NCBI GenBank assembly: GCA_963704905.1
Contig: CAVPHZ010000001.1
Span: forward strand, 259,438-323,437
DNA: 64,000 bases
Source of the DNA: Candidatus Chisholmbacteria bacterium
Lineage (GTDB): Bacteria > Patescibacteriota > Microgenomatia > UBA1400 > Chisholmbacteraceae
Reading direction: 5' to 3'
The notes beneath the pieces were generated by a model. It was not told where the DNA came from. It worked only from the letters and a program-made list of their open reading frames with translations, and did not search any database. Within the stretch, counting starts at the first letter, position 1; each line of letters opens with the position of its first letter. Positions 22,269 through 42,662 of the stretch are shown here, piece after piece. Both the position numbers and the translations under genes were made by a program.

Positions 22269-22276
22269 TCTTTATT

Positions 22277-26215: not shown

Positions 26216-27151
26216 TTACTCTTCGCTGTCGAGAAGTTTTGTGATTGTTGGAAAGACACTTATATGGTCAAAGTTTAATGGCAATACTGATCCAATTTTT
26301 ACTGGTATGTCATCGAACGCGTATATTTCGTTTCGAAATACTTTTGTCTTCAATAGAATGGTATATGTTACATCCTTTAATACAGGATCTGTTACTTCCA
26401 GTGGTTGTCCCATGTCAGTAATTACAATTCTTCTAGCTGGCACTATCTCATTTGACTCTATTTTAACCAATACATTTTTATTTGAATCGAGAATCTTGTC
26501 ACCAACCTTCACTGCATCGGCTATTTCCGGTAACACTCCGTACACATCTGAGTACTCTCTTGAAGGGTAGAGAAGCTTTGCTTCAAGTTCTACAACTTCT
26601 GTTTCGTAAATATCCTGAATGTTGTTCACATCTGTTACAAGACCGTCAAATTGAATGGTGGAAAAATTAAACTGAAGAGGGGTTCCAAACGCCAGCTTTT
26701 GACCTTTAATTGAATATGCTTTGCTTCTGGAGTCGTATACTGCTCTTGTTTGAATCGTAAGATATACTACTTTTCTAGGAATGGTATTTGAATCTGAAAA
26801 GTAGTCTCCTCTTAATTCGCGTGGTTGACTAACATCAAATGATTCGACATCGACAATTTGAGAGTTTATTCTCCCTAAAGCATCTTTTTCCACATCACCT
26901 ATTTGAAATCTGTTCGCAAACCAACTCAAAGGTTGTGTTCTGGCATAAAGCAAGTCACGATCTGTTACTTTAACCCGTAGCTCAACAAATTCAGTCTTTC
27001 TAAATAAAAAAATAAAAACTCCTATTAGTACCGCTCCTAATACTACAAACAGTACGTAGTCTATAGTTCGTAGTGAGAGTTTTTTTAGCAAGTCTCCAGC
27101 TAATATGCTCTGCCATTTTTTCCTTAGTGTCATCATTATAGTCTCACTCAT
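26216..27151 (-). CDS. Hypothetical membrane-anchored extracytoplasmic protein
   Basis: 311 aa, a single N-terminal TM (IDYVLFVVLGAVLIGVFIFLF); no recognisable catalytic motifs; overlaps the Wzy-like gene by 4 nt. Confidence 0.3.
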   Translation of the reverse strand: MSETIMMTLRKKWQSILAGDLLKKLSLRTIDYVLFVVLGAVLIGVFIFLFRKTEFVELRVKVTDRDLLYARTQPLSWFANRFQIGDVEKDALGRINSQIVDVESFDVSQPRELRGDYFSDSNTIPRKVVYLTIQTRAVYDSRSKAYSIKGQKLAFGTPLQFNFSTIQFDGLVTDVNNIQDIYETEVVELEAKLLYPSREYSDVYGVLPEIADAVKVGDKILDSNKNVLVKIESNEIVPARRIVITDMGQPLEVTDPVLKDVTYTILLKTKVFRNEIYAFDDIPVKIGSVLPLNFDHISVFPTITKLLDSEE

Positions 27152-28614
27152 GAGTATCCGATAAGCATCCCGAGTATGATACCCAATAGAGGAAATTCTA
27201 GCAAGGCGATATGGGGTTGAAATACGTAATATATCATGATGGCTAGTAAGTTTATTTTTACTAACAACCCTTCAAAGTTGTTGACCTTTTTAACTTTTAA
27301 AGAAAAACCAGAAAGAAATATCATAAAAAATAAAATCATTGCAAAAATGCCTGAATCGACCAAGATTTGTATATATGCATTATGAACAGCTGTTGGAAAT
27401 ATACTTATTATTCCTCTTGGAAAGTATTTTATTATGGTAGCCTCATTTGTTCCTACCCCAGTTCCAATCCATAGATTAAACTGACTCGCATAGAGACCTT
27501 CTTTTATTAATTCTAATCTTGTTTCAATGCCAGCTCCTTTGTAAAAAGTATTTATAGTGAGAGCAAGTCGTGGACTAATAAGCAAAATTACTGACACAGA
27601 TAAAACACTAAAATATGCAACGTAACTTCGCCATTCCACCCTCTTCAATTTAGCAATCAACGTGCGTTTGTATTTATTTACGATTACAATTATTCCTATT
27701 AATGCTGCTGACCATACAGTCCTACTATTGCTCAGCAAAATAGTAAGACAAGATAAAAGTATTGGCACAAAGTATAGAAAGTTTCGAAAATTATTTTTTT
27801 CTTTCCATGTAAGAGCCAAATAAAGAGTTGTCTGTGTGAGAATTAGAATACCAAGTTGATTTGCATTGGTGTATGTACCTAATGGACGAAAGAACTGAGG
27901 AGAGTCTGGACTCTGACCAATTCCAGCTGACTGATAAGATTCTACACCTAATCTGATAGTTGACTGTTTTACAAACTGCATTATCGAAATAACAGATTGG
28001 AATGTGATCATTCCGGCGAGCAGTGTTGATATTCTTCTTTTATATTGTTGAGAGGTATTAATTATGTGTAGTGTTGAGAAGATCATAACTATTATAATTG
28101 CTTGTTGGACTGCAAGTATCATGGAGGTGGAGAAAAATGGAGATTTAATTGAGGAAATCAGTGCTAGTATTATATAACCAATTACACTACATGATAACAA
28201 TTTATGATGGAAAATCTTCTTTATAGTTTTATTAAATTCTTCGAACGCTTCGAATCGAATCATCCCTATTAATAAAAATAATAGTATTACATGATATGGC
28301 GTTATTCCCCATCCAGTCAGATATCCAAAACGGTAAACTTCATTTTCCATTAATCGTCCAGGAATAGCTTCGACGGTATACCACTTGCCAATCTTAAATT
28401 GACTAGCAAACACCGAAGCTAGATATAATCCAAGCGTGAGTGATTTATTCAAAACACTTGAAATAACAGCGACAAAAAGAAGCCAAATTAGAATAGCTTT
28501 ATTTGATGATGCGCTGAATAGTGCACTGAAACTTGCCAATAATGTCGATGAAATTGCTGGGTGTTTGAATGCTATTTTTTTAACTTTTGTTATGATGCTG
28601 CTATGAAACTTCAT
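27148..28614 (-). CDS. Wzy-like O-antigen polymerase / O-antigen ligase family membrane protein
   Basis: 488 aa, ~11 TMs; signature AVHNAYIQILVDSGIFAMIL (H-N-x-Y-hydrophobic-x(3)-E/D-x-G). Confidence 0.6.
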   Translation of the reverse strand: MKFHSSIITKVKKIAFKHPAISSTLLASFSALFSASSNKAILIWLLFVAVISSVLNKSLTLGLYLASVFASQFKIGKWYTVEAIPGRLMENEVYRFGYLTGWGITPYHVILLFLLIGMIRFEAFEEFNKTIKKIFHHKLLSCSVIGYIILALISSIKSPFFSTSMILAVQQAIIIVMIFSTLHIINTSQQYKRRISTLLAGMITFQSVISIMQFVKQSTIRLGVESYQSAGIGQSPDSPQFFRPLGTYTNANQLGILILTQTTLYLALTWKEKNNFRNFLYFVPILLSCLTILLSNSRTVWSAALIGIIVIVNKYKRTLIAKLKRVEWRSYVAYFSVLSVSVILLISPRLALTINTFYKGAGIETRLELIKEGLYASQFNLWIGTGVGTNEATIIKYFPRGIISIFPTAVHNAYIQILVDSGIFAMILFFMIFLSGFSLKVKKVNNFEGLLVKINLLAIMIYYVFQPHIALLEFPLLGIILGMLIGYS

Positions 28615-29434: not shown

Positions 29435-30574
29435 TCATATCTTCATTGAGAATCGCGTTTTTGCTTTTTCATGAATGATATTTGTGATCCGCCGATTTGC
29501 TACTGCCCATGACCATTCTTTTTCCATCTCTCTCGATGGTTGTCTTATATAGTTGGTGGGGAAAAACACTTTATATTTCATGTAGAACAATAACACTTTT
29601 TGTTGAATTTGTAAGTTATTCCTATAATTATTTACTTCTCTTTCTAGCTCCTTAGGCACAACCTCAGGAAAAAGTTCTTCCAATAACATGAATTGCCAAA
29701 ATAAATACTCTTTCAGTTTGAATTTTTTAAGAATTATAATAATTTCGTTCCATTTGATATTAGATTTATATGTTTGAATAACCTTCGCAAATTCTAACAA
29801 TCTAATCCCTAATTGAAAGTTGTGCTGTAGGAATAGGTGTAAGAATAGGCTCAATGTAAGTGTCGTGGGTGAAACTGTCGTTACATAAAGATTATGATAG
29901 TGAACCTTGTTTCTCCTTTTAAATATCTCCTGTGTAATCGCTGCAATGCTCTGATTGTTGAGAATGGGGGAGGTAAAAAAGTTATACGTATCCGCTACCG
30001 AAGTGTGTATTTCCACTCTATGACTTCCCTTTGAAAAAACTTCCTCTCTCCTTGGAAGAAAAAAATCTATTGAAGGAATGCGGTTTAGTTTTACTTCATT
30101 CGTTGATTCAGAAAGATATTGGTAACTGCTTTTAAATAAAATGTTGGTTGTTCTTTTGAATTCTTCTATAGGTATGAGTATATCAATATCATTTGGGATT
30201 TTTATTCTCTCCTTACCCCACAATTCGTGATTTCTTGCGTAGGTTTTTAAGATGATGTAATTAAGGTCTTGCGCTATTAACTCCTTGATTATCTTCTCTG
30301 ATTGTTTTTCATGCCACAGCGCCTTGAGTTGTATGTGGCGTTTCTGTTTGGTTAGGTTGTTCACAAGTTTTAGTGGGATGTGCTTTGACAAATTGTTACT
30401 TCTAAGTTGATTGATGACTACAACTTGTAAGAAGTTATTCTCTATGATATTCAAAACTTTCTCCCAGTGTAAATCTGATGTAGAGATTAGATTTTCTATT
30501 TTTCTAACAGTATTTTGTGAACGAGTGACTTCAAGTTGACAAAATAGTTTAATCAATTTAGTTTCTTTGAACAT
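29435..30574 (-). CDS. Putative nucleotidyltransferase (PF14907 'uncharacterised nucleotidyltransferase'-like)
   Basis: 379 aa; ...IILKTYARNHELWGKERIKIPNDIDILIPIEEF... resembles the G-x-R...DiDlLv pattern of that family. Family assignment is from memory of the motif. Confidence 0.45.
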   Translation of the reverse strand: MFKETKLIKLFCQLEVTRSQNTVRKIENLISTSDLHWEKVLNIIENNFLQVVVINQLRSNNLSKHIPLKLVNNLTKQKRHIQLKALWHEKQSEKIIKELIAQDLNYIILKTYARNHELWGKERIKIPNDIDILIPIEEFKRTTNILFKSSYQYLSESTNEVKLNRIPSIDFFLPRREEVFSKGSHRVEIHTSVADTYNFFTSPILNNQSIAAITQEIFKRRNKVHYHNLYVTTVSPTTLTLSLFLHLFLQHNFQLGIRLLEFAKVIQTYKSNIKWNEIIIILKKFKLKEYLFWQFMLLEELFPEVVPKELEREVNNYRNNLQIQQKVLLFYMKYKVFFPTNYIRQPSREMEKEWSWAVANRRITNIIHEKAKTRFSMKI

Positions 30575-30685
30575 TTTACTGCCTCGGAATGGTTATACAT
30601 CAAATTATTACAGCATTAGTCTTGAGAAAGTTTATATTCGTTCAAGTTTATATACATTCAATGTGGTATTTTGAATGCCTCATCT

Positions 30686-31135
30686 CTAACTATTCTTGAG
30701 TATCAAGCGATTAATATTAAGCACTCCTTTTCTTGTCAAAGACAAAATCTTTATCCTTGGGAAACGAACTGACAATCTAGTGAAAATTACTATTATGGGT
30801 GTGAGCGCTACTGTGGACAACTTTTTTTCGTAATGCTTCCACTTTCCGTCTATCTTGATGCTTGTCACTTTTCCCTCAATTATCTTTATTTTATTTCTCT
30901 GATCAAAGTGTCTATTCGCATCCGCTACTGTTTTGATACCACCATTAGTGGTCTTGATTACCCTATGAACTAGTGGGATTTCTGTTCCGTTACTTCTTAT
31001 ATAGGTAACTCCGATAATATCTCCAACTTTTATTTTCTCTTTTATAGCTCTATTTAATAACAACAGTTCGCCTTTGCGGATTGTTGGCTCCATACTTCTA
31101 CTGTTGATTCTTACTAGATTTATAAATTTTTCCAT
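30686..31135 (-). CDS. Signal peptidase I of the SipW/Sec11 (S26B, ER/archaeal) type
   Basis: 149 aa; box B NSRSMEPTIRKGELLLL, box D VGDIIGVTY...IPLVHRVIK, C-terminal TM. This is the SipW/Sec11 pattern (Ser-Met-Glu-Pro ... His-Arg-Val). Confidence 0.6.
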   Translation of the reverse strand: MEKFINLVRINSRSMEPTIRKGELLLLNRAIKEKIKVGDIIGVTYIRSNGTEIPLVHRVIKTTNGGIKTVADANRHFDQRNKIKIIEGKVTSIKIDGKWKHYEKKLSTVALTPIIVIFTRLSVRFPRIKILSLTRKGVLNINRLILKNS

Positions 31136-31272
31136 ATTTCTTATTGTGTTATTTGCTCTTTTTCACGATAATCCTAATGTTCCTTATCACGTAATTTTAC
31201 CCTACTAACATTAATCGATTTGCTCATTCTCCTTTTCGCAAATTAATTGGTAGAATAATCTTCTAATACATC

Positions 31273-31899
31273 ATGAATTTTTCAAAAGGGTCAACTATTG
31301 TTGCTTTCGGAGCTCATCCAGATGATATCGAAGTTGGAATGGGTGGAACATTAGCCTATCTCTCAAGTTCATTTAAGGTTTTTCCGGTGATTGCCACTGT
31401 GCCAAATAATAAACGAACCAGAGTGAATGAAGCTAAAAACGCAGCAGCACTTCTAGGTATTCGGCAACCGATTTTTTTGAACATTTCAAAGAATGATTTC
31501 CTTTTTACACGTAAAGTAGTAACCCTTATAGACAAATTGGTTGATAAACTTGATCCAGATTATGTTTTCACTCACTGGATTGGTGATTCCCACCAAGACC
31601 ATCAAAACCTAACTAAGGTTGTAATTTCAGTTTGCAGGAAAAATCGATCTTCCCTTTTTATGTATGAAAGCATGATCCCTGGTGGGATAACGGATAAGGC
31701 TTTTCGAGCGCAGCTTTATGTTGATATTTCTGCTCATTTTAAAAAGAAAATATCCTCAATCAGAGCGAGTAAAACGCAACTCTCAAAACATGGTGCGTCT
31801 TGGCTAAAAGGAATAGAAGGAAGGTCGAGGTTGCGAGGATTTGAAATTGGAACTAAATACGCAGAAGCGTTTGAGGTGATAAAAATCGTACATAAATAG
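31273..31899 (+). CDS. PIG-L/LmbE-family deacetylase (second copy)
   Basis: TIVAFGAHPDDIEVGMGGT and HWIGDSHQDHQN motifs. Confidence 0.7.
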   Translation: MNFSKGSTIVAFGAHPDDIEVGMGGTLAYLSSSFKVFPVIATVPNNKRTRVNEAKNAAALLGIRQPIFLNISKNDFLFTRKVVTLIDKLVDKLDPDYVFTHWIGDSHQDHQNLTKVVISVCRKNRSSLFMYESMIPGGITDKAFRAQLYVDISAHFKKKISSIRASKTQLSKHGASWLKGIEGRSRLRGFEIGTKYAEAFEVIKIVHK

Positions 31900-32073
31900 T
31901 CATGAGATAACTTCTTTTTTTGACTTTTTATTTACTGAGCCGGTTTAACACCTCAAATACTAAATCAACACTATACATTTTTCTGCATTTCTTGCTAAGC
32001 TTTTGAGATTTCCTCCAAAGATAATTCCAATATTATTCCAGAAGTATATTCACTGCCATTAGTTATATTGCTC

Positions 32074-33324
32074 TTAATAAAATGTGGTAATTCCGTACTT
32101 CTTCAGTTCTTTTGAGGCGTTGTTTATTCTTCTTTTTACAACTTTCTTTGGGACTTTCGGTTCCAGTGTCGTTGATCTTGCTTCAGGTCTTTCACTATAC
32201 TCGAAGAGTGTCACCTGTTGAAATCCAATTTTTTTTATCGTATTTATCGTTTTTTGAAAATCTTTTTCAGTTTCTGTAGGAAAACCGACAATTACCTGCG
32301 TATCGATCCGTAATTCTGGATATTCCTTTTTTAATTCGAGCATTGCTATTTCTATTTCTTCAATTTTTCCCCTTCTTAGCATAAGTTTTAGTACTCTGTT
32401 GCTCCCAGATTGGATCGGACATAGAATCCTAGTAATTTTTTTTGTCTTTATAATTTTTTTCAGCTCTTCACGATAGTTGATCAACCATTCAGGATCTAGT
32501 TCTGAAATTGAAATGTTGTATTTTCCTTTATGTTTCACGATCTCTTCTAAGAGTCCTGGAAAGGTTTCTCCAATATCTAAACCATACAGTCCAACATTAT
32601 CAGATAATATATTGAATTCTTTATATCCTTCTGTGAGTCCTTCTTCGAATTCTCTTACACAGACATCTAAAGGTTTGCTTCTTAGTCTCCCGACGGCTTT
32701 CCATATGACACAATATGAACACCTTCTGCTGCATCCCCAACCAACTCTAATATGGTAAGTTCTTGCTGCAATAGAGTCAGGCCTGACATTATCAATACTC
32801 TCTAGTATTGATGGTGAAATATATGTAAGAAGGTGAACACTTTTATTTTTTAGACCATGAAAGGTGTATTTCATTGCTTTATAAAACACACTTCTGTTGT
32901 CACTATCGTTATTAACGTGAGGGAAATTGCTTTTGATATCACCTCGTTTTCTCTTGAATGTTTGATTAGCATCTCGCAGTGTAGAGAATTTAATCTTCAA
33001 GTGTGGATTTATGTTGTCAAATTTTTCAAGATTATCAGTTGCCAGCGCTTCTCCTTGGTGTATCTCTTTTAAACGCCTTGGGTTGATGTTAACAAGACAC
33101 CCAGTTACAATTAATTTTCCTTTATGTTTCTGGAGTGCACGGATTCTTTCTATCGACTTTTCTTCGTCTCTTCCTCTAAACGCACATGTATTTAAGATCA
33201 TTGTATTTGCTAAAGCAGGATGCCCGATCCAGTAATAGCCATTACTCGTAAAATAGCTTTTCATTTTTTGGGTGTCCAATAACCTTCTAGGACATCCTAA
33301 TGATTCGATATACACTGTCTTCAT
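32074..33324 (-). CDS. Radical SAM methylthiotransferase (MiaB/RimO/MtaB family), no TRAM domain
   Basis: N-terminal MTTase domain (VYIESLGCP...NTCAF...VTGCL) and radical SAM HIRVGWGCSRRCSYC; 416 aa. No C-terminal TRAM-like domain visible. Confidence 0.7.
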   Translation of the reverse strand: MKTVYIESLGCPRRLLDTQKMKSYFTSNGYYWIGHPALANTMILNTCAFRGRDEEKSIERIRALQKHKGKLIVTGCLVNINPRRLKEIHQGEALATDNLEKFDNINPHLKIKFSTLRDANQTFKRKRGDIKSNFPHVNNDSDNRSVFYKAMKYTFHGLKNKSVHLLTYISPSILESIDNVRPDSIAARTYHIRVGWGCSRRCSYCVIWKAVGRLRSKPLDVCVREFEEGLTEGYKEFNILSDNVGLYGLDIGETFPGLLEEIVKHKGKYNISISELDPEWLINYREELKKIIKTKKITRILCPIQSGSNRVLKLMLRRGKIEEIEIAMLELKKEYPELRIDTQVIVGFPTETEKDFQKTINTIKKIGFQQVTLFEYSERPEARSTTLEPKVPKKVVKRRINNASKELKKYGITTFY

Positions 33325-33531
33325 TTCACCTTACCTTTTTCAGAGTGCTTTTATATTATCTTCCCTTGATCATTCATTACCCATTGAGCTGGTGATTCCG
33401 ATCGAGAGAATCCCATTATACGCATGCATCGGTAACAGTTTTTTAAGATTTATTTTGATGCTTTGTGTCTTAACTATTTTCATTTCGATTGGTCTGTTTG
33501 AACTCTGGTAGTTACTATTCTAATCATTAAT

Positions 33532-34071
33532 TTACAATTTTAGCTCCTTTATTTCTAGGTTGTCCCATTTCTCTTTGCGTAACTGATTTTCAAAATGCGA
33601 GAATCTATAATTCTTACCATATCTTTTCACTCCTATTGTATGACGAAAGAATGTCATATGACCAACTACAGTGACTGAGTGGTATCTTTCACTTCTCATG
33701 TACGTGAGGAATCTGCACGCTCTCTCTTTTATCTCGTTGAAGCTCTCACTGCTGTCATACTTCCAATCTGGATTTTGTCTTATTTGCTGGATATGTTCTT
33801 TCCAAAAGTTACGAACAACGTCTAGTGGTTGAGCGTATAATACTTTTGGAGCAACGTATTCATAAATGAAATCAAGTATTTCGTATTCTTGAAAGAGCAT
33901 CTCAGCTGTTTGCCTTGCCCTTATTAGAGGTGATGTGTATACCTTCTCTGGTTTTAGACCTGATGCTGTGTTAAACAAATTTCCTGAAGTTACAATGGGG
34001 GTATCCTCTCTTGGGTATAATCCTTGTAAAGCATCAATAGTCTTTGCGTGCCTTAATAAGACTAGTTTCAT
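33532..34071 (-). CDS. Histidine phosphatase (phosphoglycerate-mutase-like) family protein
   Basis: MKLVLLRHAKT (RHG motif), ...SPLIRARQTAE..., VVGHMTFF. Confidence 0.65.
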   Translation of the reverse strand: MKLVLLRHAKTIDALQGLYPREDTPIVTSGNLFNTASGLKPEKVYTSPLIRARQTAEMLFQEYEILDFIYEYVAPKVLYAQPLDVVRNFWKEHIQQIRQNPDWKYDSSESFNEIKERACRFLTYMRSERYHSVTVVGHMTFFRHTIGVKRYGKNYRFSHFENQLRKEKWDNLEIKELKL

Positions 34072-34304
34072 TTATTCTGTGAATTAATAATGATTGGCGC
34101 GAGTATTTTAGCAATTCTCTTGAGTTAGTATTAGATAAACTACTTTATGAATATATTGTTAGGTTCTACAATTATTAGTATAGTTCATTTAGCACGTTTC
34201 GGGCGATAATATGATTTCTAACGTAACAGCGCAGGCTCATTGTCGAGAATACCAAGTTCGTTGCAACTTTATTCAATGTCTGGAGGTAGTACCTTAATTT
34301 TCTG

Positions 34305-35249
34305 ATGGTTGAAAAAGATGTTTCAATACTCATTTCCGGCGCAGGTGCGGCTGCTGGAATCGGTGCTATTAAGTCACTTCGTCTGGCAAATTTTAGTGGG
34401 AAAATTACGGCAATAGATAGTTCAGATTACTCTGCAGGTTTCTATCTTGCTGATAGGAACTATGTTGTTCCGCGAGCAAGAAATCCTAAGTATATTGGAA
34501 GACTGTTTGAGATTGTTGAAGAAGAGCGTATCAATCTCATTATCCCGACATCCGGTTTTGATATTTTTCCTATATCAAAACATGCGTCTGAGTTGAATAA
34601 AAAAGGCGTCGTTGTTTTTATGAGTGACTATTCAACCATGTTGTTGTGTTCTGATAAATATCAAGCGGCAATGAAGGTGTCCGCTTTTTCACCAATACCA
34701 AAGCACTACAAAACTATTCGACAAGTGAAGGAATATCCAGTTTTTATTAAACCACTTAAAGGTAAGGGTTCAATAAATTGCTATGTTTGCAAGAGTAGAA
34801 GAGAAGTTGAGGCTTATCAGCGTTTGGTTGGTGATAACTTCATTATTCAAGAGCATCTTCCTGGCAAGGAATACACTGTTGATCTATTGTCCGATTTCAA
34901 TAGAAAGGTTGTTGTGGCAGTTCCGAGACTAAGGATAAGAACTGAATCTGGGATATCTACAACAGGTAAAGTTCTATTGGATCCGAATTTGAGTAGCCTA
35001 GCGAAAAAAATATGTCATTTCATTGGCATCATTGGGCCTGCTTGCATCCAATTTAAAGAAGATCGACGTCGACAGGTGAAGTTTACTGAAATTAATCCAC
35101 GTTTGGGAGGGGGATCGATAATTTCCACTATCGCGGGGGTTAATATTCCTCGACTCCTCATAGATCTTTTCTTAAATAGATCGTTTCCAACTCCAAAGTT
35201 TCAAGAAGTACTCGTTACGAGGTATCTCGAGGAAAAATCACTCAACTAA
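34305..35249 (+). CDS. ATP-grasp domain ligase (CarB/PylC-like fold, 314 aa)
   Basis: ILISGAGAAAGIGAIKSL..., YPVFIKPLKGKGSINCYVCKS..., IIQEHLPGKEYTVD..., ACIQFKE...FTEINPRLGGG match ATP-grasp A/B/C subdomain motifs. Confidence 0.65.
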   Translation: MVEKDVSILISGAGAAAGIGAIKSLRLANFSGKITAIDSSDYSAGFYLADRNYVVPRARNPKYIGRLFEIVEEERINLIIPTSGFDIFPISKHASELNKKGVVVFMSDYSTMLLCSDKYQAAMKVSAFSPIPKHYKTIRQVKEYPVFIKPLKGKGSINCYVCKSRREVEAYQRLVGDNFIIQEHLPGKEYTVDLLSDFNRKVVVAVPRLRIRTESGISTTGKVLLDPNLSSLAKKICHFIGIIGPACIQFKEDRRRQVKFTEINPRLGGGSIISTIAGVNIPRLLIDLFLNRSFPTPKFQEVLVTRYLEEKSLN

Positions 35250-36279
35250 TGCTTTTATAATTCTTCCACAATTTTTTTAAGACGTTATCTGTGTATTTTT
35301 CTCGTATTGCTTTCCGTGAAGTATGAAATTGTAAGTTTTCCAATTCGTTTACTTCTTTCGTGCTTATTTCCAAATACCTACACGCTCGTCTTATTGCAGA
35401 GGAGACGATCGTCTTGTCTTCTATTTTTTTTCTAAAATATACTGCATCTAAGATAAACATTAATAGTCTACGCGAAAAGTACTCTTGACGAAGATTAATC
35501 AATCGATTCTGATCACTGCGAAGTTGTTTCATTAATTGAGCTTGAGATTTTTTTTCAAATATTTCATCTCGAATAGCTCTGTGCCTTTCTCCCGCAATGC
35601 TCCCAAGTGGGTCGATCCAAAATCGTCGATTCGATGATCTCATGTCTGGACTCGAGGTAGAGAATTTGTATCCTAAGTAGAAACAATGACGACTCCAGAA
35701 AATTGAAGATTCTTGTGGAAGAGGAATTTGCTCAGTAGAGAATGCGAGATTGTTGAACTTGGCGCTCACTACTCCAAAATACCCTCCAAAAAAGAATGGT
35801 CCAAATAGTTTGTTTTCGATGTTTTCTTGCCAACTAATTAATTTCATCAAGTCTGGTAAAAACACTTGTCTTTGCAACCTGACTAAGGGAAGGTATCTTA
35901 CCCTTCCTCTTAAAACGTCGGCGTTGGGGTTTTTGACAAAGTCTTTTCGTATGTTGATATAAAAATCTCTCAAGGGCCAATTGTCAGCGTCGGTACTTAA
36001 TAAATGAGTGGCTCGCTGTGAGGCGTGTTTTAATCCTTTATGTTTTGCGTACAGAGCGCCTTCTCTCTTCTCGTATATTACATCCAAGTTTATTTGTTTG
36101 TTCCATTTGTGCCAGGATTTTATCTTCCGCACCGTCGCATCCGTGCTATTGTTATCAACAATAACAAAGAGTATCTTCTGATCTTCTTGAGTGGTGAACT
36201 TCTCAAGTGCAGATACTATGTATCTTTCCTCATTATGTGTGGGGATTACCACCGCAATATCGAAATCCATGGCACTCAT
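35242..36279 (-). CDS. GT2-like glycosyltransferase with ~120-aa C-terminal extension (paralog 1 of 2)
   Basis: IAVVIPTHNEERYI...FVIVDNNSTD...LSTDADN; homologous along its length to 37374..38411 (shared GPFFFGGYF/GPYFFGSHF and ...RRL.../...RFLW... blocks). Confidence 0.65.
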   Translation of the reverse strand: MSAMDFDIAVVIPTHNEERYIVSALEKFTTQEDQKILFVIVDNNSTDATVRKIKSWHKWNKQINLDVIYEKREGALYAKHKGLKHASQRATHLLSTDADNWPLRDFYINIRKDFVKNPNADVLRGRVRYLPLVRLQRQVFLPDLMKLISWQENIENKLFGPFFFGGYFGVVSAKFNNLAFSTEQIPLPQESSIFWSRHCFYLGYKFSTSSPDMRSSNRRFWIDPLGSIAGERHRAIRDEIFEKKSQAQLMKQLRSDQNRLINLRQEYFSRRLLMFILDAVYFRKKIEDKTIVSSAIRRACRYLEISTKEVNELENLQFHTSRKAIREKYTDNVLKKLWKNYKSIS

Positions 36280-36291
36280 CCAGAATCTACT

Positions 36292-36555
36292 TTACTCAAT
36301 CAATAGTTTTTTTCTTCTTAGCTTGTTCAACAACTTCTCAACGTCAGCTTTTGCGGATAGATGGCTGACGTCATATTCTACTTTCAGTTTATTTATTATT
36401 TCGTCTTGAGATCTTGCCTTTGCTAAGAACTTCCAAATCAGAGTAGCAGATTCGTTAAGGCTGATAATTTCATCCTTTTCTTCGTCGAGGATGTGCATTT
36501 CTCCGTCCACTTCTTGGCAAATTATTTTCTTTTTTCTTTGATATTTTTTAGCCAT
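36292..36555 (-). CDS. PqqD-family protein (RiPP recognition element, RRE)
   Basis: 87 aa; ...QEVDGEMHILDEEKDEIISLNESATLIWKFLAKARSQDEIINKLKVEYDVSHLSAKADVEKLLNKLRRKKLLIE matches the PqqD consensus (vdGe..lld....i..LNeta..iW.l.....t.eeIv..L...Ydv......aDv..fl..L...gLI). Confidence 0.8.
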   Translation of the reverse strand: MAKKYQRKKKIICQEVDGEMHILDEEKDEIISLNESATLIWKFLAKARSQDEIINKLKVEYDVSHLSAKADVEKLLNKLRRKKLLIE

Positions 36556-37384
36556 CTTCGGTAATTTTCTTTATCAATATAGGAATAAAGTCTGAATCTG
36601 GGCGTAATTTTATTTGATATATGTCTACGTTGTCAATAAAACTGAAAATAAGCTTCCCGAACTCTTTGATTTCCTTTTGACTGAATAATGTATTTGGCAT
36701 AAACGGAATGTGAGAGTTCATTCTTATCAATGACAATTTATCTGAAAAACTCAGATTATTAATTTTATGCCTTTCTCCATGCGATGGAGAAAATACAGCT
36801 TTAACGATATACGGTGAATTATTATGAATATGTTGTTTAAAGATATCAAATCTGTTTGTTTCTAAAAAAGGAGAGGGATAGATAACAAATTCATTATTTT
36901 TTTTAAAAATAAACGCTGAGTTGTCCGAGAGTATCACTGATCCTGGTATTCGTTTCTTGATTAAATCTACTATTGTTGATTTTCCGCTTCCAGATTTTCC
37001 AGAAAAAATTATTGCTTTTTTTTCAATAAGAATCGATGATGCGTGAAGCACGAATCCGCCTGACTTGTGAAGAATGATATTAAAAATTCTTGCAATGAAT
37101 TGATGGACTGCGGGGTATAAAAAAATTGGTGCTTTTGAAGCGTGGATTGTGAATAAGTTGGATTTTGGATTTTGAAAAAAAGTGAGCGATATGTTTCTTT
37201 CACTGCTGTCTTTTATTTTTAATCTTGTGTGAATTAACCCTTTCTTGCTCTTGAGTTTGCACGAAATAAATTGACAGTTTTCATATAATTTTGTGAAATA
37301 TTTTATCCAATCAGACGCTGCTATAAGTTCGCACTCCATGTTTGCGTACTGTATGAATACTTGTTCATGCTTGCTACTTTTCAT
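36548..37384 (-). CDS. HPr kinase C-terminal-domain-like P-loop kinase (HprK_C, PF07475-like), as found in RRE-associated kinase pairs
   Basis: 278 aa; GGFVLHASSILIEKKAIIFSGKSGSGKSTIVDLI...VILSDNSAFIF = HprK_C-like P-loop; overlaps the PqqD gene by 8 nt. Confidence 0.7.
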   Translation of the reverse strand: MKSSKHEQVFIQYANMECELIAASDWIKYFTKLYENCQFISCKLKSKKGLIHTRLKIKDSSERNISLTFFQNPKSNLFTIHASKAPIFLYPAVHQFIARIFNIILHKSGGFVLHASSILIEKKAIIFSGKSGSGKSTIVDLIKKRIPGSVILSDNSAFIFKKNNEFVIYPSPFLETNRFDIFKQHIHNNSPYIVKAVFSPSHGERHKINNLSFSDKLSLIRMNSHIPFMPNTLFSQKEIKEFGKLIFSFIDNVDIYQIKLRPDSDFIPILIKKITEDG

Positions 37385-38411
37385 CTAGATACCTGTTCAT
37401 TTTCACATTAATTTGTTTTAATACATCAGCTTCTAAGCGGTTGAATATTTTAGCTTGATTAACTATTCCATTTTCTTTCGTCAAGAGTTCCTCCGTATGG
37501 TTAATAAATCCCAGTGCCTTCTGCATTGCCCTTCTGGCGTTATGGTGGATTTGATTAGTTTGAACCCAGAAAACATAAGCATCGATCATTGACCAGAGAA
37601 ATCTCTTTGAAAATTTAGCCACTAGTTTTCCTTTCAACTTACTCGCTTCATTATCTGACATTCTTTTAAATTGTATTCCTTGATCGCTTACATCTTTGTC
37701 ATATGGTGAGCTCACATTTCCTATATATTCCGCAATTGTTCTCTCTTGGTAGAGTAGTATTCTTCTGTCGTGTGGCTTAACAGCGAGTTTTGAACGCAAA
37801 AATTTTCCGCCAAGATAATGGCATCTTCTGGAAAGTAAGATGTCTTCGCCCATATACTTTTCATGATTCTCGGGATTAAATAAAAGAATATTTCTATAGA
37901 ACTTGGTTCGGATTGCAAAGTGTGATCCAAAGAAATATGGTCCAAATATTGAGTATTCAAGATTCCATATTTTTCTTTGCATGTTTACAATCTCTGGAGC
38001 TGTAATTTTTTTCCACAACCTAATTCTTGGATTGATTGCTTTTCTGCCAGACAGAATATCTATACGCTCCTCCGCAAAAGAGTCGACAGTAGATTGGATT
38101 AGGTTTGATGGAAACGTTGTGTCGGCATCGGTGCTAATTAAAATGTCTGATGATGTTTTTGAAGCCTTATCTAAACCTGTCCTTCTGGAGTATACCGTCC
38201 CTTGTCGTCTTTCTTGAATGATGCTGTAGGTGATGCCAGATTTTCTGCAGAACTCTTCTATGATTTCTGGAGTCTTGTCTATGCAATTGTTATTTACAAA
38301 AATTACCTCCCACTTAATATTGGATGCTGTTTGTTGATTAGCGAGGCATATTAAGGTATTCGTTATGTAGTATTCTTCGTTGAAAAATGGAATAACTACT
38401 GCACAGTTCAT
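37374..38411 (-). CDS. GT2-like glycosyltransferase with C-terminal extension (paralog 2 of 2)
   Basis: CAVVIPFFNEEYYI...VIFVNNNCID...ISTDADT; same architecture as 35242..36279. Confidence 0.65.
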   Translation of the reverse strand: MNCAVVIPFFNEEYYITNTLICLANQQTASNIKWEVIFVNNNCIDKTPEIIEEFCRKSGITYSIIQERRQGTVYSRRTGLDKASKTSSDILISTDADTTFPSNLIQSTVDSFAEERIDILSGRKAINPRIRLWKKITAPEIVNMQRKIWNLEYSIFGPYFFGSHFAIRTKFYRNILLFNPENHEKYMGEDILLSRRCHYLGGKFLRSKLAVKPHDRRILLYQERTIAEYIGNVSSPYDKDVSDQGIQFKRMSDNEASKLKGKLVAKFSKRFLWSMIDAYVFWVQTNQIHHNARRAMQKALGFINHTEELLTKENGIVNQAKIFNRLEADVLKQINVKMNRYLDEK

Positions 38412-39076
38412 CTCTTGTTTTGCTTTGCGTACTGTCTGAAATCGATTAAGTCGATCCTTTTCCTCTTAATAGCATTTTTGACTTTATCACTGGTTAACAC
38501 CTCTACCTCTCTGTTTCTTTGCATGCGGTAGGGATCCTTCAATCGGTTACTTGTCCACCCGGGATGACAGATCAGCTCTGTACTACCTGGTTCTAATGAA
38601 TCCAAACAACTGATCAAGTGACTCGTGCTGATGTTCTCCGGTGTAGGTCTTCCGGAGATTAAACCATAGAACCTCGTCTCTATGTAATGATTGTTGTCAT
38701 AACGAAATTCAAGCTGTTGTTTCTTGACCAGCATACGTATTTTAAAATACATTTTTTTGGAAAATTTAAACCCTTTATGATAATCTAGATGCGTTGGTTT
38801 GAACTTAAAATACCTTTGAAAAACCCCTAGTTGTTCATTTGTCTTTGCTACGATACTTTCTGCTGTGATATTTTTATCTTCGACCTGTATGTGAATGCCC
38901 CAATTGATATCACTGTTTTGTTGAACTAACTTCTGAGTGTGTGAAAGATGGTTTCTATTTAAAAGAATGCTTGTTGAAGTAACAATTCCTTTTCTAATTG
39001 CATACAGTATTCCATGACTAATACCTGGACTAATGCCGAAGTCGTCGGCATTCACAATTAACTTTCTAGATTGCAT
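38408..39076 (-). CDS. YdjC/ChbG-family carbohydrate deacetylase
   Basis: LIVNADDFGISPGISHGIL... plus THLDYHKG and CHPG motifs of the YdjC family. Confidence 0.7.
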   Translation of the reverse strand: MQSRKLIVNADDFGISPGISHGILYAIRKGIVTSTSILLNRNHLSHTQKLVQQNSDINWGIHIQVEDKNITAESIVAKTNEQLGVFQRYFKFKPTHLDYHKGFKFSKKMYFKIRMLVKKQQLEFRYDNNHYIETRFYGLISGRPTPENISTSHLISCLDSLEPGSTELICHPGWTSNRLKDPYRMQRNREVEVLTSDKVKNAIKRKRIDLIDFRQYAKQNKR

Positions 39077-39115
39077 TGGGAATATTTTACTTAAAAAAGC
39101 AACATTCTTGAATTG

Positions 39116-39226
39116 TTAGTGCTCTGCGTAGAAGCTTGAAATAAATTTCTCTGTTTTGAGCTCTGGTTTAACGTATTTTTTTCGGTTTGTCTTCTTCTCT
39201 TCTTGCTTGTTGATCTTTCTCATCAT
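39116..39226 (-). CDS. Candidate small ORF (36 aa, Lys-rich): MMRKINKQEEKKTNRKKYVKPELKTEKFISSFYAEH; possible precursor/substrate peptide of the downstream RRE-kinase-GT operon
   Basis: Hand-translated on the minus strand. Strong SD AAAGGGGGTG 5 nt upstream of ATG (39224-39226), TAA stop at 39116-39118. Lies 39 nt upstream of the YdjC gene on the same strand and below the ORF-track size cutoff. Confidence 0.4.
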   Translation of the reverse strand: MMRKINKQEEKKTNRKKYVKPELKTEKFISSFYAEH

Positions 39227-39263
39227 TCACACCCCCTTTACCTCCATACTTTGGTATATCTCA

Positions 39264-39293
39264 AGGTTAGCATGCTTCTTGAGTAGTTGTCAA
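39264..39293 (-). promoter_or_regulatory. Sigma70-like promoter for the small-ORF/YdjC/GT2/kinase/PqqD/GT2 operon
   Basis: Minus strand: consensus -35 TTGACA (39288-39293), 18-nt spacer, -10 TAACCT (39264-39269), ~35 nt upstream of the small-ORF ATG. Confidence 0.4.
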
Positions 39294-39405
39294 GTTATTA
39301 TTTAGTGATGGTAACAATGTGAAAATGATTAAAAATCAGTGTATCTTGTTCTATTCTTTCTTGCTTACGTTACAATAAGTTAATATCTGTACTCTTAATC
39401 TAGAA

Positions 39406-40044
39406 ATGAGATCGGAAAATCCTTATAAAACTCTTGAAAAAATTGAATCTGTTTGCAAAAAATGCAACATTCCAACAATTGGAGTAAATACTGGTGAGGT
39501 TTTGTCGTTGCTTGCAGCTTTACATAAACCTCGAAAGATACTGGAAATCGGAACAGGAGGTGGATACTCGACAATTTGGATTGCAAGTAAGTTAACGCAT
39601 AACTATTTCATTGATACAATTGAAAAAGACAAAAGCGTGTATTCCATAGCCATGAAAAATATTACAAGCACTCGATTTTCAAATAATATTCATCTCATCC
39701 ACTCTGATGCTCTCACTTGGATAAACAGAAAAACGAATGAAGAGTACGATTACATCTTTGTTGATGGAAAGAAAAGTGAATACCATCGATATTTAGAGTC
39801 ATGTAGACCTCTTCTTAGAAAAAAAGGGCTGATTATATTTGATGACACTTTGTTCTGGCTGAAAAAAAATACAGATACTGCTCGGGCCTTTAAGACAAGA
39901 AAAGAGAAGATTTTCCATATCCTGAAGATGAAAAGGCTTGAGGTATATTTTAGAGATTTTAATAGGAAATTCCAGAAGAATTCTCAATACAATGCGGTAT
40001 TCATTCCCATAGAGAATGGTTTAACCATCGGTCAGAAGTTATAA
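39406..40044 (+). CDS. Class I SAM-dependent O-methyltransferase (family 3, caffeoyl-CoA-OMT-like)
   Basis: KILEIGTGGGYSTIWIA..., YDYIFVDGKKSEY..., GLIIFDDTLFW. Confidence 0.65.
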   Translation: MRSENPYKTLEKIESVCKKCNIPTIGVNTGEVLSLLAALHKPRKILEIGTGGGYSTIWIASKLTHNYFIDTIEKDKSVYSIAMKNITSTRFSNNIHLIHSDALTWINRKTNEEYDYIFVDGKKSEYHRYLESCRPLLRKKGLIIFDDTLFWLKKNTDTARAFKTRKEKIFHILKMKRLEVYFRDFNRKFQKNSQYNAVFIPIENGLTIGQKL

Positions 40045-40082
40045 GCGAATTTTACTTAGAGCTCTTTCTATTCGTAGTTATT

Positions 40083-41111
40083 ATGATTATTCTCAAACAG
40101 ATTGTTTTTGCTTTTTCTTCGATGCTGTTCTTCTTTTCGCTTGGAAGGTGGCCATTTTTTAATTGGCGTTATCGATACGTTTTACCTCTATCAGCTGTTT
40201 TTTCTTTTACATCTCTGGTTTATACACTCTCTCAGTACAGATTTTCGTACTATGAGTTGTTCCTGCTTTTATTACTCTTGCTGTTTAGCTTAATCTATGG
40301 AAAGAGAAGAAAGTATTATGGTGGTTCAACGCTTTTTCAACAAATGTCACATGGCTTGATTACTGTCGAAGAAAATAAATCAAAAAATATTCGAGTACTA
40401 AAGCGAGATGGAAAAACTACCTCAGGTATCGAGCTAACAACCCAGCAGCCGACTTCAAAATTGCTCTGGTTTCCTCATCTTTCAGAGCTTTTCCCTTTTA
40501 AGATAACGCGTGTTCTTTGTATTGGAGGTGGAGCTTGTGCTTATCCAATTTATGCTTTGAAAATGAATCCAGAAATGTATATGGATGTCGTTGAAATCGA
40601 TCCGGTAGTTGTTGAGGTAGCTAAGAAGTACTTTCCTCTTCCAATAGCTAGTGGCTTTAAACTTATTCAAGATAATGCTTTACGATGGCTTAAGAAAAAT
40701 CACAAAAAGAAATATGACCTCATTTTTGTTGATGTAGGAATTATCTCGTCGGTTTCACAAGTTTCATACAACACTCAATTCCTGAATGAAAACGCTTTAA
40801 AAGATTATATAAGATGTCTATCTAAGAATGGCACAGTAATGATAAATATTATGATGACCTTACTTTCTGGAGATATTAAACTAAATTATGAGTTGCTTTC
40901 TGCCTTTAATAAATCTTTTCGATCCTATCTCGCGTTTGTTACTAATCCGATAATCGACAAGGCTCAATTGAATGACGTCCTGCACATCTTCAGTAGACAG
41001 AAAGTTATTCAAGGTCTACTTAGAAAGAAACTATCCTTAACACCCGAAGACCAGTTGTCATTTAATAAGAACGATTATCTACAGATGCTTGACTCTCGTC
41101 AGGTTGGTTAG
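40083..41111 (+). CDS. Membrane-anchored spermidine-synthase-fold (aminopropyl/methyl-transferase-like) protein
   Basis: 2-3 N-terminal TMs then RVLCIGGGACAYPIYALKMNPEMYMDVVEIDPVVVEVAKKYF and YDLIFVDV, matching the spermidine/spermine synthase Rossmann motifs. Confidence 0.5.
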   Translation: MIILKQIVFAFSSMLFFFSLGRWPFFNWRYRYVLPLSAVFSFTSLVYTLSQYRFSYYELFLLLLLLLFSLIYGKRRKYYGGSTLFQQMSHGLITVEENKSKNIRVLKRDGKTTSGIELTTQQPTSKLLWFPHLSELFPFKITRVLCIGGGACAYPIYALKMNPEMYMDVVEIDPVVVEVAKKYFPLPIASGFKLIQDNALRWLKKNHKKKYDLIFVDVGIISSVSQVSYNTQFLNENALKDYIRCLSKNGTVMINIMMTLLSGDIKLNYELLSAFNKSFRSYLAFVTNPIIDKAQLNDVLHIFSRQKVIQGLLRKKLSLTPEDQLSFNKNDYLQMLDSRQVG

Positions 41112-41127
41112 TTTAATACGTTAACAT

Positions 41128-41889
41128 TTACTTTTTTTTGGGGGGGGTGTATTTGAAGTTGTATTCTTTTTCATAAAGGCGAATAATTCCTTTTGGGGTG
41201 CTTTTTGCTCGAATCTCGCCATTGAATAACCAAATAGCTCGATTGCAGATTTTTTTCAGTAACTCAAAAGAGTGTGTAGCAATAATTATTGTTTTTCGTT
41301 TTTTCCTAAACTCGTTAATTTTATCTAGTGATTTTTGTTTGAAATTATTATCCCCAACAGAAATATTTTCATCTAGAATAAGAACTTCTGGTGAGGCATG
41401 AATAGCAATGGCAAAACTTATTCGTAGCTTCATTCCGTCTGAGTATGTATATAATGGCGCATCGATAAACCCACCGATGTCCGCAAAGGTTGTAATGCTT
41501 TTTAGTTTTTTTACGATTTCATTTTTATCCATTCCAAGCAATAAACCATTCAAGAAAATGTTTTCTTCCCCGGTTAAATCTGGGTGAAACCCAGCTCCAA
41601 GTTCAATGAGGGATATAATTTTATGCTCACAGAGAATGCTACCGTACGTAGGGGTTGTTATCCCTGCCATAATCTTAAGAAGGGTTGTTTTTCCTGATCC
41701 ATTTGCCCCGAAGATACCAACTGAGTCTCCTTTAAATACTGTTAAGTTTATGTCCCTTAGGGCGTAGAATTCTTCAGTTTTTTTTCTTTTGAAAATATTT
41801 TCTACTAGCGTAGGTTTCTCGTGATGAACGACATACTTCTTTCCAATGTGCTTAAGCTTAATGATAGTTTCTCTCATTTTTACAACCAA
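41128..41889 (-). CDS. ABC transporter ATP-binding protein, Wzt/TagH/KpsT type (glycan export)
   Basis: Walker A GANGSGKTTLLKIMAGI, signature YSDGMKLRISFA, Walker B LILDE. Confidence 0.8.
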   Translation of the reverse strand: MVVKMRETIIKLKHIGKKYVVHHEKPTLVENIFKRKKTEEFYALRDINLTVFKGDSVGIFGANGSGKTTLLKIMAGITTPTYGSILCEHKIISLIELGAGFHPDLTGEENIFLNGLLLGMDKNEIVKKLKSITTFADIGGFIDAPLYTYSDGMKLRISFAIAIHASPEVLILDENISVGDNNFKQKSLDKINEFRKKRKTIIIATHSFELLKKICNRAIWLFNGEIRAKSTPKGIIRLYEKEYNFKYTPPKKK

Positions 41890-42662
41890 TCAACGAAGTA
41901 TGGACTTTCCCTTATGAATATGTAGATCCCAACACATATAACAACCATGCTTATCACTAAATTGGTCATCATCAGTTGAACATTTATTAATCCTTGATTC
42001 AAAATTGCCATATGAAATAACTCAAAAATACTTGTAAGAGGGTTAATTAAAAATAGCTTATGTAAAGAATCTGGGATGATACTTAAGTTATAAATAATTG
42101 GTGTTATATAGAACCACAAGATTAGCGCTGATTGAATAAAAAAGTTTATGTCTCTAAAGCGCACCTGGAGGCTTGATGTGATTAGAGACAAACCAATCGT
42201 AAACATTAGCAGCCATACAAGAGCTGGTAACATTATAAGTATCTCGGGAAATAGGAGTTTGTTGGTTAATAATAAAAATATTCCTAGCAAAAATAGTGAA
42301 ATTAAAAGGTGGATAAAGTTAGAGAATATCATTGAAATCGGTATTACTTCCTTTGAAAATTTCGTTTTTTGCAGTAATGATCGCTCATTAACGAAACTTG
42401 GGGTAGTCTTAGTTACTGAGAGTAGAAAAAATTGCCATGGTAATAATCCTGTAAATAAAAATAGGAAATAGTCAGGTATTCTAATATACAAAGAAAAAAT
42501 TAGACCGATGATTGTCATTTGAAGCAAGGGGTTAAGTAAAACCCATAAAAAACCAAATATTGCCCTTTTATATCGAGCTTTTATCTCTCTTTCGGTCATC
42601 ACCCAAAGAAAGTCTAGATATTTATTCATATTTTCTCTAGTTTTTTTTCTACGAATGAGCAT
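41880..42662 (-). CDS. ABC-2 type permease (Wzm/TagG/KpsM-like)
   Basis: 260 aa, 6 TMs, ABC-2 family pattern; overlaps the ATPase gene by 10 nt. Confidence 0.75.
   Translation of the reverse strand: MLIRRKKTRENMNKYLDFLWVMTEREIKARYKRAIFGFLWVLLNPLLQMTIIGLIFSLYIRIPDYFLFLFTGLLPWQFFLLSVTKTTPSFVNERSLLQKTKFSKEVIPISMIFSNFIHLLISLFLLGIFLLLTNKLLFPEILIMLPALVWLLMFTIGLSLITSSLQVRFRDINFFIQSALILWFYITPIIYNLSIIPDSLHKLFLINPLTSIFELFHMAILNQGLINVQLMMTNLVISMVVICVGIYIFIRESPYFVDWL

Follow-up and report, generated by a model that had tools for sequence, protein, structure and literature searches.

The LPP (lppA-K-B-S-D-N) family of Bacillota (Popov et al., Nat Commun 2026;17:6633, May 2026; PMC13381572) comprises clusters for peptides that are made by the ribosome and modified after translation (RiPPs). 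Their core consists of a SipW-type signal peptidase, a discrete RiPP recognition element (RRE), an HprK-like kinase and an NTP_transf_5 protein, without a cyclase. Here we analyzed a 64,000-nt stretch of DNA from a Candidatus Chisholmbacteria bacterium (contig CAVPHZ010000001.1; the whole stretch is called “the window” below) and found that its positions 29435-42662 hold a genuine conserved gene cluster. By analogy with LPP, we consider it probable that this block is an LPP-type RiPP maturation cluster, in which a 36-aa peptide would be phosphorylated and glycosylated.

LPP precursors are 35-200 aa long, with an N-terminal YxxPxVLxHQxIxFETxxS motif and a variable C-terminal core (PMC13381572). 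LppK polyphosphorylates Ser3 of the core and does not accept Thr or Tyr there, while LppS removes the leader in a reaction that requires the RRE, cleaving F-E-T|A, a non-canonical signal-peptidase site (PMC13381572). The clusters sit in capsular polysaccharide loci of Bacilli and about one third of them co-occur with glycosyltransferases; their final product and function are unknown, and the authors suspected partner enzymes outside the core cluster (PMC13381572). A pair of an HprK-like kinase and a PF14907 (NTP_transf_5) enzyme is also typical of lasso-peptide clusters of the paeninodin/pseudomycoidin type, where the kinase acts on the linear precursor; in pseudomycoidin the PF14907-type enzyme PsmN adds hexose(s) to phospho-Ser (PMC9266682). 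Motifs of the YxxPx[LVIA] type are bound both by discrete lasso RREs (PMC6784204) and by LPP RREs (PMC13381572).

The window cluster shares with LPP four of the five core families (an S26 peptidase of the TIGR02228 type, a discrete PqqD RRE, an HprK-like kinase and NTP_transf_5), the lack of a macrolactam cyclase, a YxxPx[V/L/I] precursor motif and the setting in a polysaccharide locus. It differs from LPP in several respects. The exporter, in the window and in all relatives, is a two-component Wzm/Wzt-like pump of the ATP-binding cassette (ABC)-2 type, whereas that of LPP is MsbA-like and fused. The precursors are only 23-36 aa long and near-invariant to the C-terminus, in contrast to the longer LPP precursors with their variable C-termini; only the YxxPx[LVIA] part of the LPP motif is shared, in nine of 11 peptides, and the rest (VLxHQxIxFETxxS) is missing, with KxEKF[VI][AS]SFYAE and then an aromatic residue in its place. 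Two family 2 glycosyltransferases (GT2a and GT2b), a YdjC-family deacetylase and a spermidine-synthase-like gene are conserved here, with YdjC and the GT2 genes interleaved with the kinase and RRE genes. Finally, the hosts are uncultured and known from metagenomes, while LPP was reported to be restricted to Bacillota (PMC13381572).

The LPP domain table lists the peptidase under TIGR02228 and the nucleotidyltransferase under NTP_transf_5; YdjC is absent from it and ABC2_membrane has a total count of 2 (PMC13381572). Because of this absence and this low count, the coupled GT2/YdjC/spermidine-synthase-like module is new relative to LPP. By analogy, the system would work like an LPP or phospho-lasso tailoring pathway, but it stands outside LPP as defined, since its exporter type and precursor motif do not conform.

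A sequence-only reading of this DNA had proposed an undescribed system for RRE-guided phosphorylation and/or glycosylation and export of a peptide or protein, embedded in a glycan island, with possible nucleotidylylation or methylthiolation. We retain its central part. The system can no longer be called undescribed, as its core already defines the LPP family (PMC13381572), and methylthiolation or ligation is given a lesser place for reasons stated below.

The conserved cluster and its candidate precursor

Domains were assigned from a map of open reading frames (ORFs) and from hidden Markov model (HMM) scans against Pfam and NCBIfam. All ORFs of at least 120 aa between 1120 and 56901 of the window were annotated except two short ones (22084-22503 and 50780-51151); ORFs past 56.9 kb were left outside the HMM scan. 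All of the domain calls of the sequence-only reading at 29435-42662 were reproduced.

Contigs of relatives, all of them metagenome assemblies, were reached from three sides: the kinase, the peptide (which led to L040) and GT2a (which led to L042-L045). Proteins of the window's own contig, housekeeping ones included, are singletons in clustering at 90% identity. Three sources defined the conserved set: a tblastn matrix of eight relatives, the loci's Pfam tables and a scan with HMMs made from our own alignments. The set comprises 11 genes, encoding the peptide, YdjC, GT2a, GT2b, the kinase, PqqD, the S26 peptidase, the PF14907 enzyme, the spermidine-synthase-like protein, the ABC ATPase and the ABC-2 permease. 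The order in the relatives is small ORF, YdjC, GT2, kinase, PqqD, GT2, S26 peptidase and PF14907, with the ABC-2 pair and the spermidine-synthase-like gene beside this ordered core, and it is kept in L001, L002/L042, L004, L006, L040, L043, L044 and L045. Since the arrangement recurs in nine other lineages with its full gene context, it is beyond chance. In 10 lineages, window included, the peptide is conserved together with the RRE and the enzymes, a pattern that fits the general criterion for RRE-dependent RiPPs. Housekeeping genes (PGK, S1) border the ABC-2 end of the L043 cluster and separate it from the nearest Bac_transf gene; they set the cluster boundary on the ABC-2 side.

In the window the operon reads peptide-YdjC-GT2-kinase-PqqD-GT2 on the minus strand, from the 36-aa ORF to GT2b. 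The ORF coordinates give overlaps of 4 nt (YdjC/GT2a), 11 nt (GT2a/kinase) and 8 nt (kinase/PqqD), so that these four genes are translationally coupled, as had been claimed for the last pair; GT2b starts 12 nt after the end of PqqD. The linkage of the RRE-kinase pair with both GT2 paralogs, on which the sequence-only reading had staked its case, is kept in every close relative.

The 36-aa ORF (39116-39226, minus strand; MMRKINKQEEKKTNRKKYVKPELKTEKFISSFYAEH) lies 39 nt upstream of YdjC, heads the operon and is preceded by a strong Shine-Dalgarno-like sequence (aaagggggtgtgaATG). It encodes a Lys-rich N-terminus, a YVKPEL (YxxPxL) motif of the RRE-binding type and an invariant C-terminal tail, KF[VI][AS]SFYAE with an aromatic residue after it. 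We recovered 11 distinct homologous peptides of 23-36 aa (window, L001, L002, L042, L004, L006, L040, L043, L044, L045 and P0013); ten lie directly upstream of YdjC in identical operon order and one more is on a short contig. Common to all 11 is (E/D)(K/N)F[VI][AS]SFYAE; the next residue is H, W or Y, which either ends the peptide or has one more residue after it, and nine contain YxxPx[LVIA]. The L043 peptide has only 23 aa (MKKAYIKPEVKVENFVASFYAEW), hence the Lys-rich N-terminus is dispensable. Thirteen residues follow YxxPxL, and the peptides end 19-20 residues past the Tyr. Only one Ser is invariant, S31 in the numbering of the window peptide, and it belongs to the SFYAE tail; V-A-S|F (I-S-S|F in the window) is the only canonical small-residue (-3/-1) signal-peptidase site.

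The enzymes are 35-55% identical, and the tail is far better conserved than they are. In a codon alignment, third-position synonymous changes lie beneath invariant amino acids, and on these grounds the 36-aa ORF, which had been named only as a candidate, is judged to be a real, translated gene under purifying selection that is conserved across lineages. The peptide is near-invariant across lineages, which suggests a single fixed product whose role is conserved and probably related to the cell envelope, and not a diversifying antibiotic. Pfam and NCBIfam searches with the peptide returned no family, and the match to an StsA leader was insignificant (E 0.18). A tandem-duplicated peptide alignment used as the query found only three database entries, because most such small ORFs are absent from the protein collection.

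We also considered a 37-aa ORF at 33370-33483 (minus strand), between the histidine phosphatase and methylthiotransferase genes described below, as a second precursor. It is probably spurious, having no convincing ribosome-binding site and no conservation shown.

The RRE, the enzymes and the exporter

The 87-aa ORF at 36292-36555 (minus strand) encodes a discrete PqqD-type RRE. It scores 60.7 bits against PF05402 (cut-off 23.4), which bears out the earlier PqqD call. Among NCBIfam models it matches lasso B1 chaperones best, with 49.9 and 37.9 bits, each under the cut-off, and it scores 32.4 bits against PqqD proper (TIGR03859).

The adjoining gene (36548-37384, minus strand) encodes a 278-aa HprK/PEPCK-fold P-loop kinase, assigned to PF27840 (‘ScmC’) in precomputed Pfam data. 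Sequence matches to HprK-related families are weak (TIGR04352, E 1.7e-4; ScmC, E 1e-3; HprK_rel_B), and the HprK/PEPCK fold was confirmed via structure. A search of Protein Data Bank sequences with the kinase profile gave P-loop noise only, and tblastn against plasmids gave no match. Only 11 relatives were found in a collection of 5.8 billion proteins; against 1.84 billion cluster representatives the profile found 6,973 sequences at E<1e-3 and only 28 at E<1e-30. By these searches the kinase is a rare subfamily within a large HprK-like/ScmC-like superfamily. Scans of genomes and metagenomes with the kinase alignment gave only distant kinase/PqqD pairs among the matches listed. A PqqD gene lies beside the kinase gene in most of the 25 distant kinase loci listed.

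GT2a (37374-38411, minus strand) is a soluble GT-A glycosyltransferase with a three-helix C-terminal extension. Its paralog GT2b (35242-36279, minus strand; PF00535, 61 bits) is 25% identical to it, and each has a helical C-terminal extension of about 100 aa. GT2b orthologs are 33-48% identical and directly follow PqqD in all close relatives, and a DxD motif is invariant in both paralog sets. Searches with the GT2a fold did not separate a peptide acceptor from a glycan acceptor.

The first enzyme gene of the operon (38408-39076, minus strand) encodes a YdjC-family carbohydrate deacetylase (PF04794, 107.5 bits), which scores 120 bits, under the cut-off, against the chitin disaccharide deacetylase model NF002559; it is present in all relatives at 42-53% identity. 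The PF14907 (NTP_transf_5) nucleotidyltransferase-fold enzyme (29435-30574, minus strand; 89.8 bits, E 3e-25) likewise occurs in every relative. Its DxD (D129, D131) is invariant, though the window protein is just 13-18% identical to its orthologs.

The probable leader peptidase is an S26 serine peptidase of the SipW/Sec11 (archaeal) type at 30686-31135 (minus strand). It passes PF10502 (24.7 bits, cut-off 22.9) and is marginal against the archaeal-type signal peptidase model TIGR02228 (51.5 bits, cut-off 51.85). Six aligned sequences keep the M-x-P of the SxSMxPT motif, H57-R58 and D72/D78 without change; the position of the catalytic Ser falls where one of the six, a truncated gene call, has no residues. 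The peptidase has no 19-residue window with a Kyte-Doolittle mean of at least 1.6, and no strongly hydrophobic segment was found in it, the kinase, either GT2 or the PF14907 enzyme. As far as sequence goes, this lack is consistent with assembly in the cytoplasm.

The exporter consists of an ATPase whose nearest relatives are TagH and Wzt (41128-41889, minus strand) and a Wzm/KpsM-like ABC-2 permease (41880-42662, minus strand; PF01061, 57.9 bits). The ATPase scores 210.9 and 180.8 bits against teichoic-acid export ATPase models and 181.8 bits against galactan Wzt, and the permease 73.9 bits against galactan Wzm; all of these are under the cut-offs, the best scores being 211 against a cut-off of 538 for the ATPase and 74 against 380 for the permease. 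Orthologs in the relatives are 51-56% (ATPase) and 38-47% (permease) identical. The sequence-only reading had allowed that the block might match a characterized teichoic-acid or capsule locus; no such NCBIfam equivalog reaches its cut-off.

On the opposite strand, a spermidine-synthase-like class-I S-adenosylmethionine (SAM)-fold protein with two N-terminal hydrophobic segments is encoded at 40083-41111 (PF01564, 32.8 bits). It scores 45 bits, under the cut-off, against polyamine aminopropyltransferase models, and it has orthologs in L001, L002, L004, L006, L042, L043, L044 and L045; the hydrophobic segments occur in the window and L001 only. Next to it (39406-40044, plus strand) is an accessory class-I O-methyltransferase (Methyltransf_3; PF01596, 94.9 bits), with orthologs at the equivalent position in L004 and L044 only. 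As the sequence-only reading had noted for the block, the annotated ORFs of the window (1120-56901) yielded neither a lasso cyclase nor a B2 protease, LanB/M, YcaO or SPASM enzyme.

Variant loci and neighboring genes

Between GT2b and the S26 peptidase the window has a block of four genes (31273-35249): a PIG-L protein (31273-31899, plus strand), a TRAM-less MiaB/RimO-type radical SAM enzyme (UPF0004 + Radical_SAM; 32074-33324, minus strand), a histidine phosphatase (His_Phos_1; 33532-34071, minus strand) and a CPS-like/PylC-like ATP-grasp protein (34305-35249, plus strand). The MiaB/RimO-type enzyme scores 249.9 against TIGR00089 (cut-off 251) in a match that stops at model position 356 of 429, and it has an insert of about 100 aa between UPF0004 and the radical SAM core. 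The second of two PIG-L deacetylases that the earlier reading had placed in the block lies outside it, at 23157-23984.

By tblastn, none of these four proteins has a homolog in the eight relatives, and the four families are also absent from the Pfam gene tables of L044 and L045; in L044, the closest relative, a PMT_2 gene occupies the slot. The four genes may be lineage-specific tailoring genes or unrelated neighbors, outside the conserved system. The earlier reading had listed these genes with the rest of the block; they have no counterpart in any relative examined, and methylthiolation or ligation is at best a lineage-specific extra because all four genes are absent from these relatives.

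An envelope-glycan island extends over 5441-29412. It encodes two PMT_2 GT-C enzymes, a DUF2298 protein, an LCP ligase, two Wzy_C proteins (one TPR-fused), an Alg14/Alg13-like split glycosyltransferase, several GT2 and GT4 enzymes, Bac_transf (16385-17023), DUF4330, the PIG-L protein at 23157-23984 and a methyltransferase. Genes for triosephosphate isomerase and a UvrD/PcrA-type helicase are interspersed in it. A Wzy_C gene (O-antigen ligase/O-oligosaccharyltransferase type) followed by DUF4330 lies at the PF14907 end of the cluster in the window (26216-28614), L044 (16623-18939) and L045 (18380-20783), a recurrence that may mean that the peptide system is functionally tied to a lipid-linked glycan. 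Bac_transf adjoins the cluster in L001, L002, L004, L042 and L045, housekeeping genes intervene in L043, and in the window about 12 kb lie between it and the nearest cluster gene. At 53837-56901, two neighboring ORFs (495 and 505 aa) had no Pfam match at E<=0.001.

A remoter variant with a single GT2 occurs on the metagenome contigs L007, L008 and L009 (for example L007, 482-7250). The order in L007 is S26-like (minus strand), a 35-aa ORF (MNITQKNNLSIDYLELLSLTDMKCTEYNNFKDSFS), PqqD, GT2, kinase, YdjC (minus strand), the ABC-2 pair and PF14907. The candidate peptide MNITQKNNLSIDYLELLSLTDMKCTEYNNFKDSFS is unrelated in sequence save for an SF pair near a C-terminal Ser, and a pseudogene fragment of a GT2 N-terminus lies at 4115-4213 of this contig.

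With family HMMs, an S26 peptidase, an HprK-like kinase and PqqD were found together in an archaeal metagenome-assembled genome (MAG; L015, 3603-13106), a Treponema MAG (L029, 7143-8789) and L034 (9524-12498); among these three, L015 additionally has PF14907. The archaeal and Treponema MAGs and the uncultured lineages analyzed here suggest that LPP-like cores occur outside Bacillota.

A different RiPP-like cluster was seen in L013 (Candidatus Roizmanbacteria MAG JAPLYR010000118.1, 2151-10794). It encodes a GT2, a NUDIX protein, a radical SAM-SPASM enzyme, an HprK-like protein, YcaO (minus strand), a 531-aa spermidine-synthase-like protein, a second HprK-like protein with a weak Hpr_kinase_C match, and PqqD. 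The SPASM enzyme is 30% identical to one encoded just upstream of the L006 precursor gene. Small radical SAM proteins are variable neighbors of the cluster: L001 (16775-17695) and L006 (7137-8087) have the SPASM type, and L045 (16189-17178) has Radical_SAM only. The L006 gene is immediately upstream of the precursor peptide gene.

A proposed maturation route and its alternatives

By analogy with LPP and the phospho-lasso systems, the discrete PqqD protein would bind the YxxPxL motif of the 36-aa peptide, as suggested by the motif and by the precedent of LppB and lasso B1 proteins, and would hand the peptide on to the soluble enzymes that modify it. The HprK-fold kinase would (poly)phosphorylate a Ser, most likely S31, because this is the sole invariant Ser and LppK, PadeK and PsmK are all Ser-specific. 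The PF14907 enzyme and the two GT2s may then build a sugar or sugar-phosphate on the phosphorylated site, for which PsmN offers a precedent and the coupled operon an indication; the coupling of YdjC-GT2-kinase-PqqD-GT2 likewise suggests that YdjC would de-N-acetylate an N-acetylhexosamine. The SipW-type S26 peptidase, by analogy with LppS, would trim the peptide with the help of the RRE. From a cut at V-A-S|F, the product would be either the small FYAE-aromatic piece or an N-terminal fragment with Ser as its last residue. The Wzm/Wzt-like ABC-2 pump would export the product.

A more ambitious version of this route, which we offer only tentatively and regard as somewhat doubtful, is that phospho-Ser serves as a primer. 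The PF14907 enzyme, the GT2s and YdjC would assemble a sugar-phosphate or oligosaccharide on it in the cytoplasm, and the wall-polymer-type pump would export a phosphoglycopeptide of the envelope or surface.

Several observations weigh against phosphorylation and glycosylation of the peptide. We established gene content, conservation and folds; the steps of the mechanism, and with them every modification, are inferred by analogy. His-Lys-Asp is conserved in the kinase, which has Asn where the His-Lys-Asp-Asp motif of lasso kinases has its second Asp. The L004 and L006 peptides have YxGLKV, without the Pro of YxxP. The 19-residue LPP motif, counted from its Tyr, ends on the phosphorylated Ser3, and here that position is the variable H/W/Y at or next to the C-terminus, so that the LPP site register does not carry over directly. 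LppN was inactive in a heterologous host, its only experimental test, for which the authors suspected a missing partner (PMC13381572). The nearest folds to GT2a are WrtF, K4CP, TarS and TarP, which act on glycan or polyprenol-linked acceptors, and not the peptide glycosyltransferase SunS; the exporter resembles teichoic-acid and O-antigen pumps; and Bac_transf, UDP-glucose dehydrogenase, PMT_2, Wzy_C and DUF4330 recur beside the cluster. The sugar genes may thus be there for a lipid-linked glycan and not for the peptide.

These last three observations would be accounted for if an envelope-glycan locus merely lay beside a separate LPP unit. The GT2s, YdjC, the spermidine-synthase-like protein and the Wzm/Wzt pair would then be the machinery that builds and exports a wall or capsule polymer linked to polyprenol, while peptide, RRE, kinase, S26 peptidase and PF14907 would form an LPP-type unit for polyphosphorylation only. 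LPP clusters are themselves embedded in capsule loci of Bacilli, about one third of them with glycosyltransferases (PMC13381572), and the TagGH and Wzm-Wzt wall-polymer pathways resemble our cluster in their transporters (TagH/Wzt and Wzm) and in the GT2s and Bac_transf found nearby in several relatives. Our cluster differs from those pathways in that the transporter scores are far under the equivalog cut-offs, the conserved set is without TagO/A/B/F-type genes and the GT2 genes are translationally coupled to those for the RRE and the peptide kinase. We consider two neighboring units unlikely. The junctions from YdjC through GT2a and kinase to PqqD overlap (by 4, 11 and 8 nt), with GT2b only 12 nt on. 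No close relative departs from this interleaving even though identity is 35-55%, and the more distant L007 variant still keeps PqqD-GT2-kinase with YdjC, ABC-2 and PF14907. There is also no MsbA-type peptide exporter, the ABC-2 pump being the sole exporter of the set. Type I signal peptidases follow a -3/-1 small-residue rule. VAS/ISS is the only site that fits this rule, which could mean that the S26 peptidase cuts V-A-S|F and that the tail of five to six residues, FYAE[H/W/Y], as opposed to the Lys-rich N-terminus, is decorated and exported as a small, conserved metabolite or cofactor, in the manner of PQQ or mycofactocin. A tail that stays unchanged between lineages with enzymes of about 40% identity is what cofactor precursors typically show, the RRE has PqqD proper among its matches, and different radical SAM genes are optional neighbors (the three noted above and the MiaB-like one of the window). 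On the other hand, such a cut would strand the sole invariant Ser on the N-terminal fragment, off the released tail, and the characterized HprK-like peptide kinases rejected Tyr and Thr (PMC13381572). The conserved set has no radical SAM enzyme, and LppS cuts a non-canonical site, so that the rule may not apply (PMC13381572). We therefore regard a small-molecule product as quite unlikely.

The resemblance to phospho-lasso systems (PadeK/ThcoK; PsmK/PsmN) is considerable, comprising the HprK-like kinase, the PF14907 enzyme, a pair typical of paeninodin/pseudomycoidin-type clusters (PMC9266682), and a discrete B1-type RRE, with lasso B1 chaperones as its best NCBIfam matches, together with a [Y/W]xxP leader, here the YxxPxL motif (PMC6784204). 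An incomplete lasso cluster, with cyclase and B2 protease elsewhere in the genome, is still highly improbable, and we rejected it. Neither an Asn-synthetase-like cyclase nor a transglutaminase-like B2 was found in the annotated window ORFs or, by Pfam lists, in the related loci with flanks of up to 10 kb, and an S26 peptidase replaces B2, as in LPP (PMC13381572). The 13 residues after YxxPxL are too few for a ring of 7-9 residues plus a tail, and there is no conserved Thr at -2. The peptides finish on H, W or Y or on one residue beyond it, so that there is no C-terminal Ser acceptor, and the kinase motif reads His-Lys-Asp-Asn as opposed to His-Lys-Asp-Asp. Glycocins (SunA/SunS, GccA) likewise have GT2-family enzymes next to a small ribosomal peptide; we rejected this reading as well, as the peptide has no Cys and there is no specific SunS similarity.

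If the 36-aa peptide is phosphorylated and glycosylated as proposed, the cluster bears on the question that the LPP work left open. Its authors suspected outside partners, and here candidate partner enzymes, the two GT2s and YdjC, are coupled to the kinase and RRE. With 11 genes and a substrate of 23-36 residues containing one invariant Ser, that question becomes directly testable. The near-invariant peptide argues for a conserved physiological role and against a diversifying antibiotic. Were phospho-Ser to act as a primer, the peptide would be a peptide-borne counterpart of the lipid-phosphate glycan carrier, the compact set of 11 genes would disclose the missing final structure, and what the NTP_transferase does, for the whole LPP/paeninodin group, and the phosphoglycopeptide would be a conserved envelope or surface component of uncultured bacteria with very small genomes.

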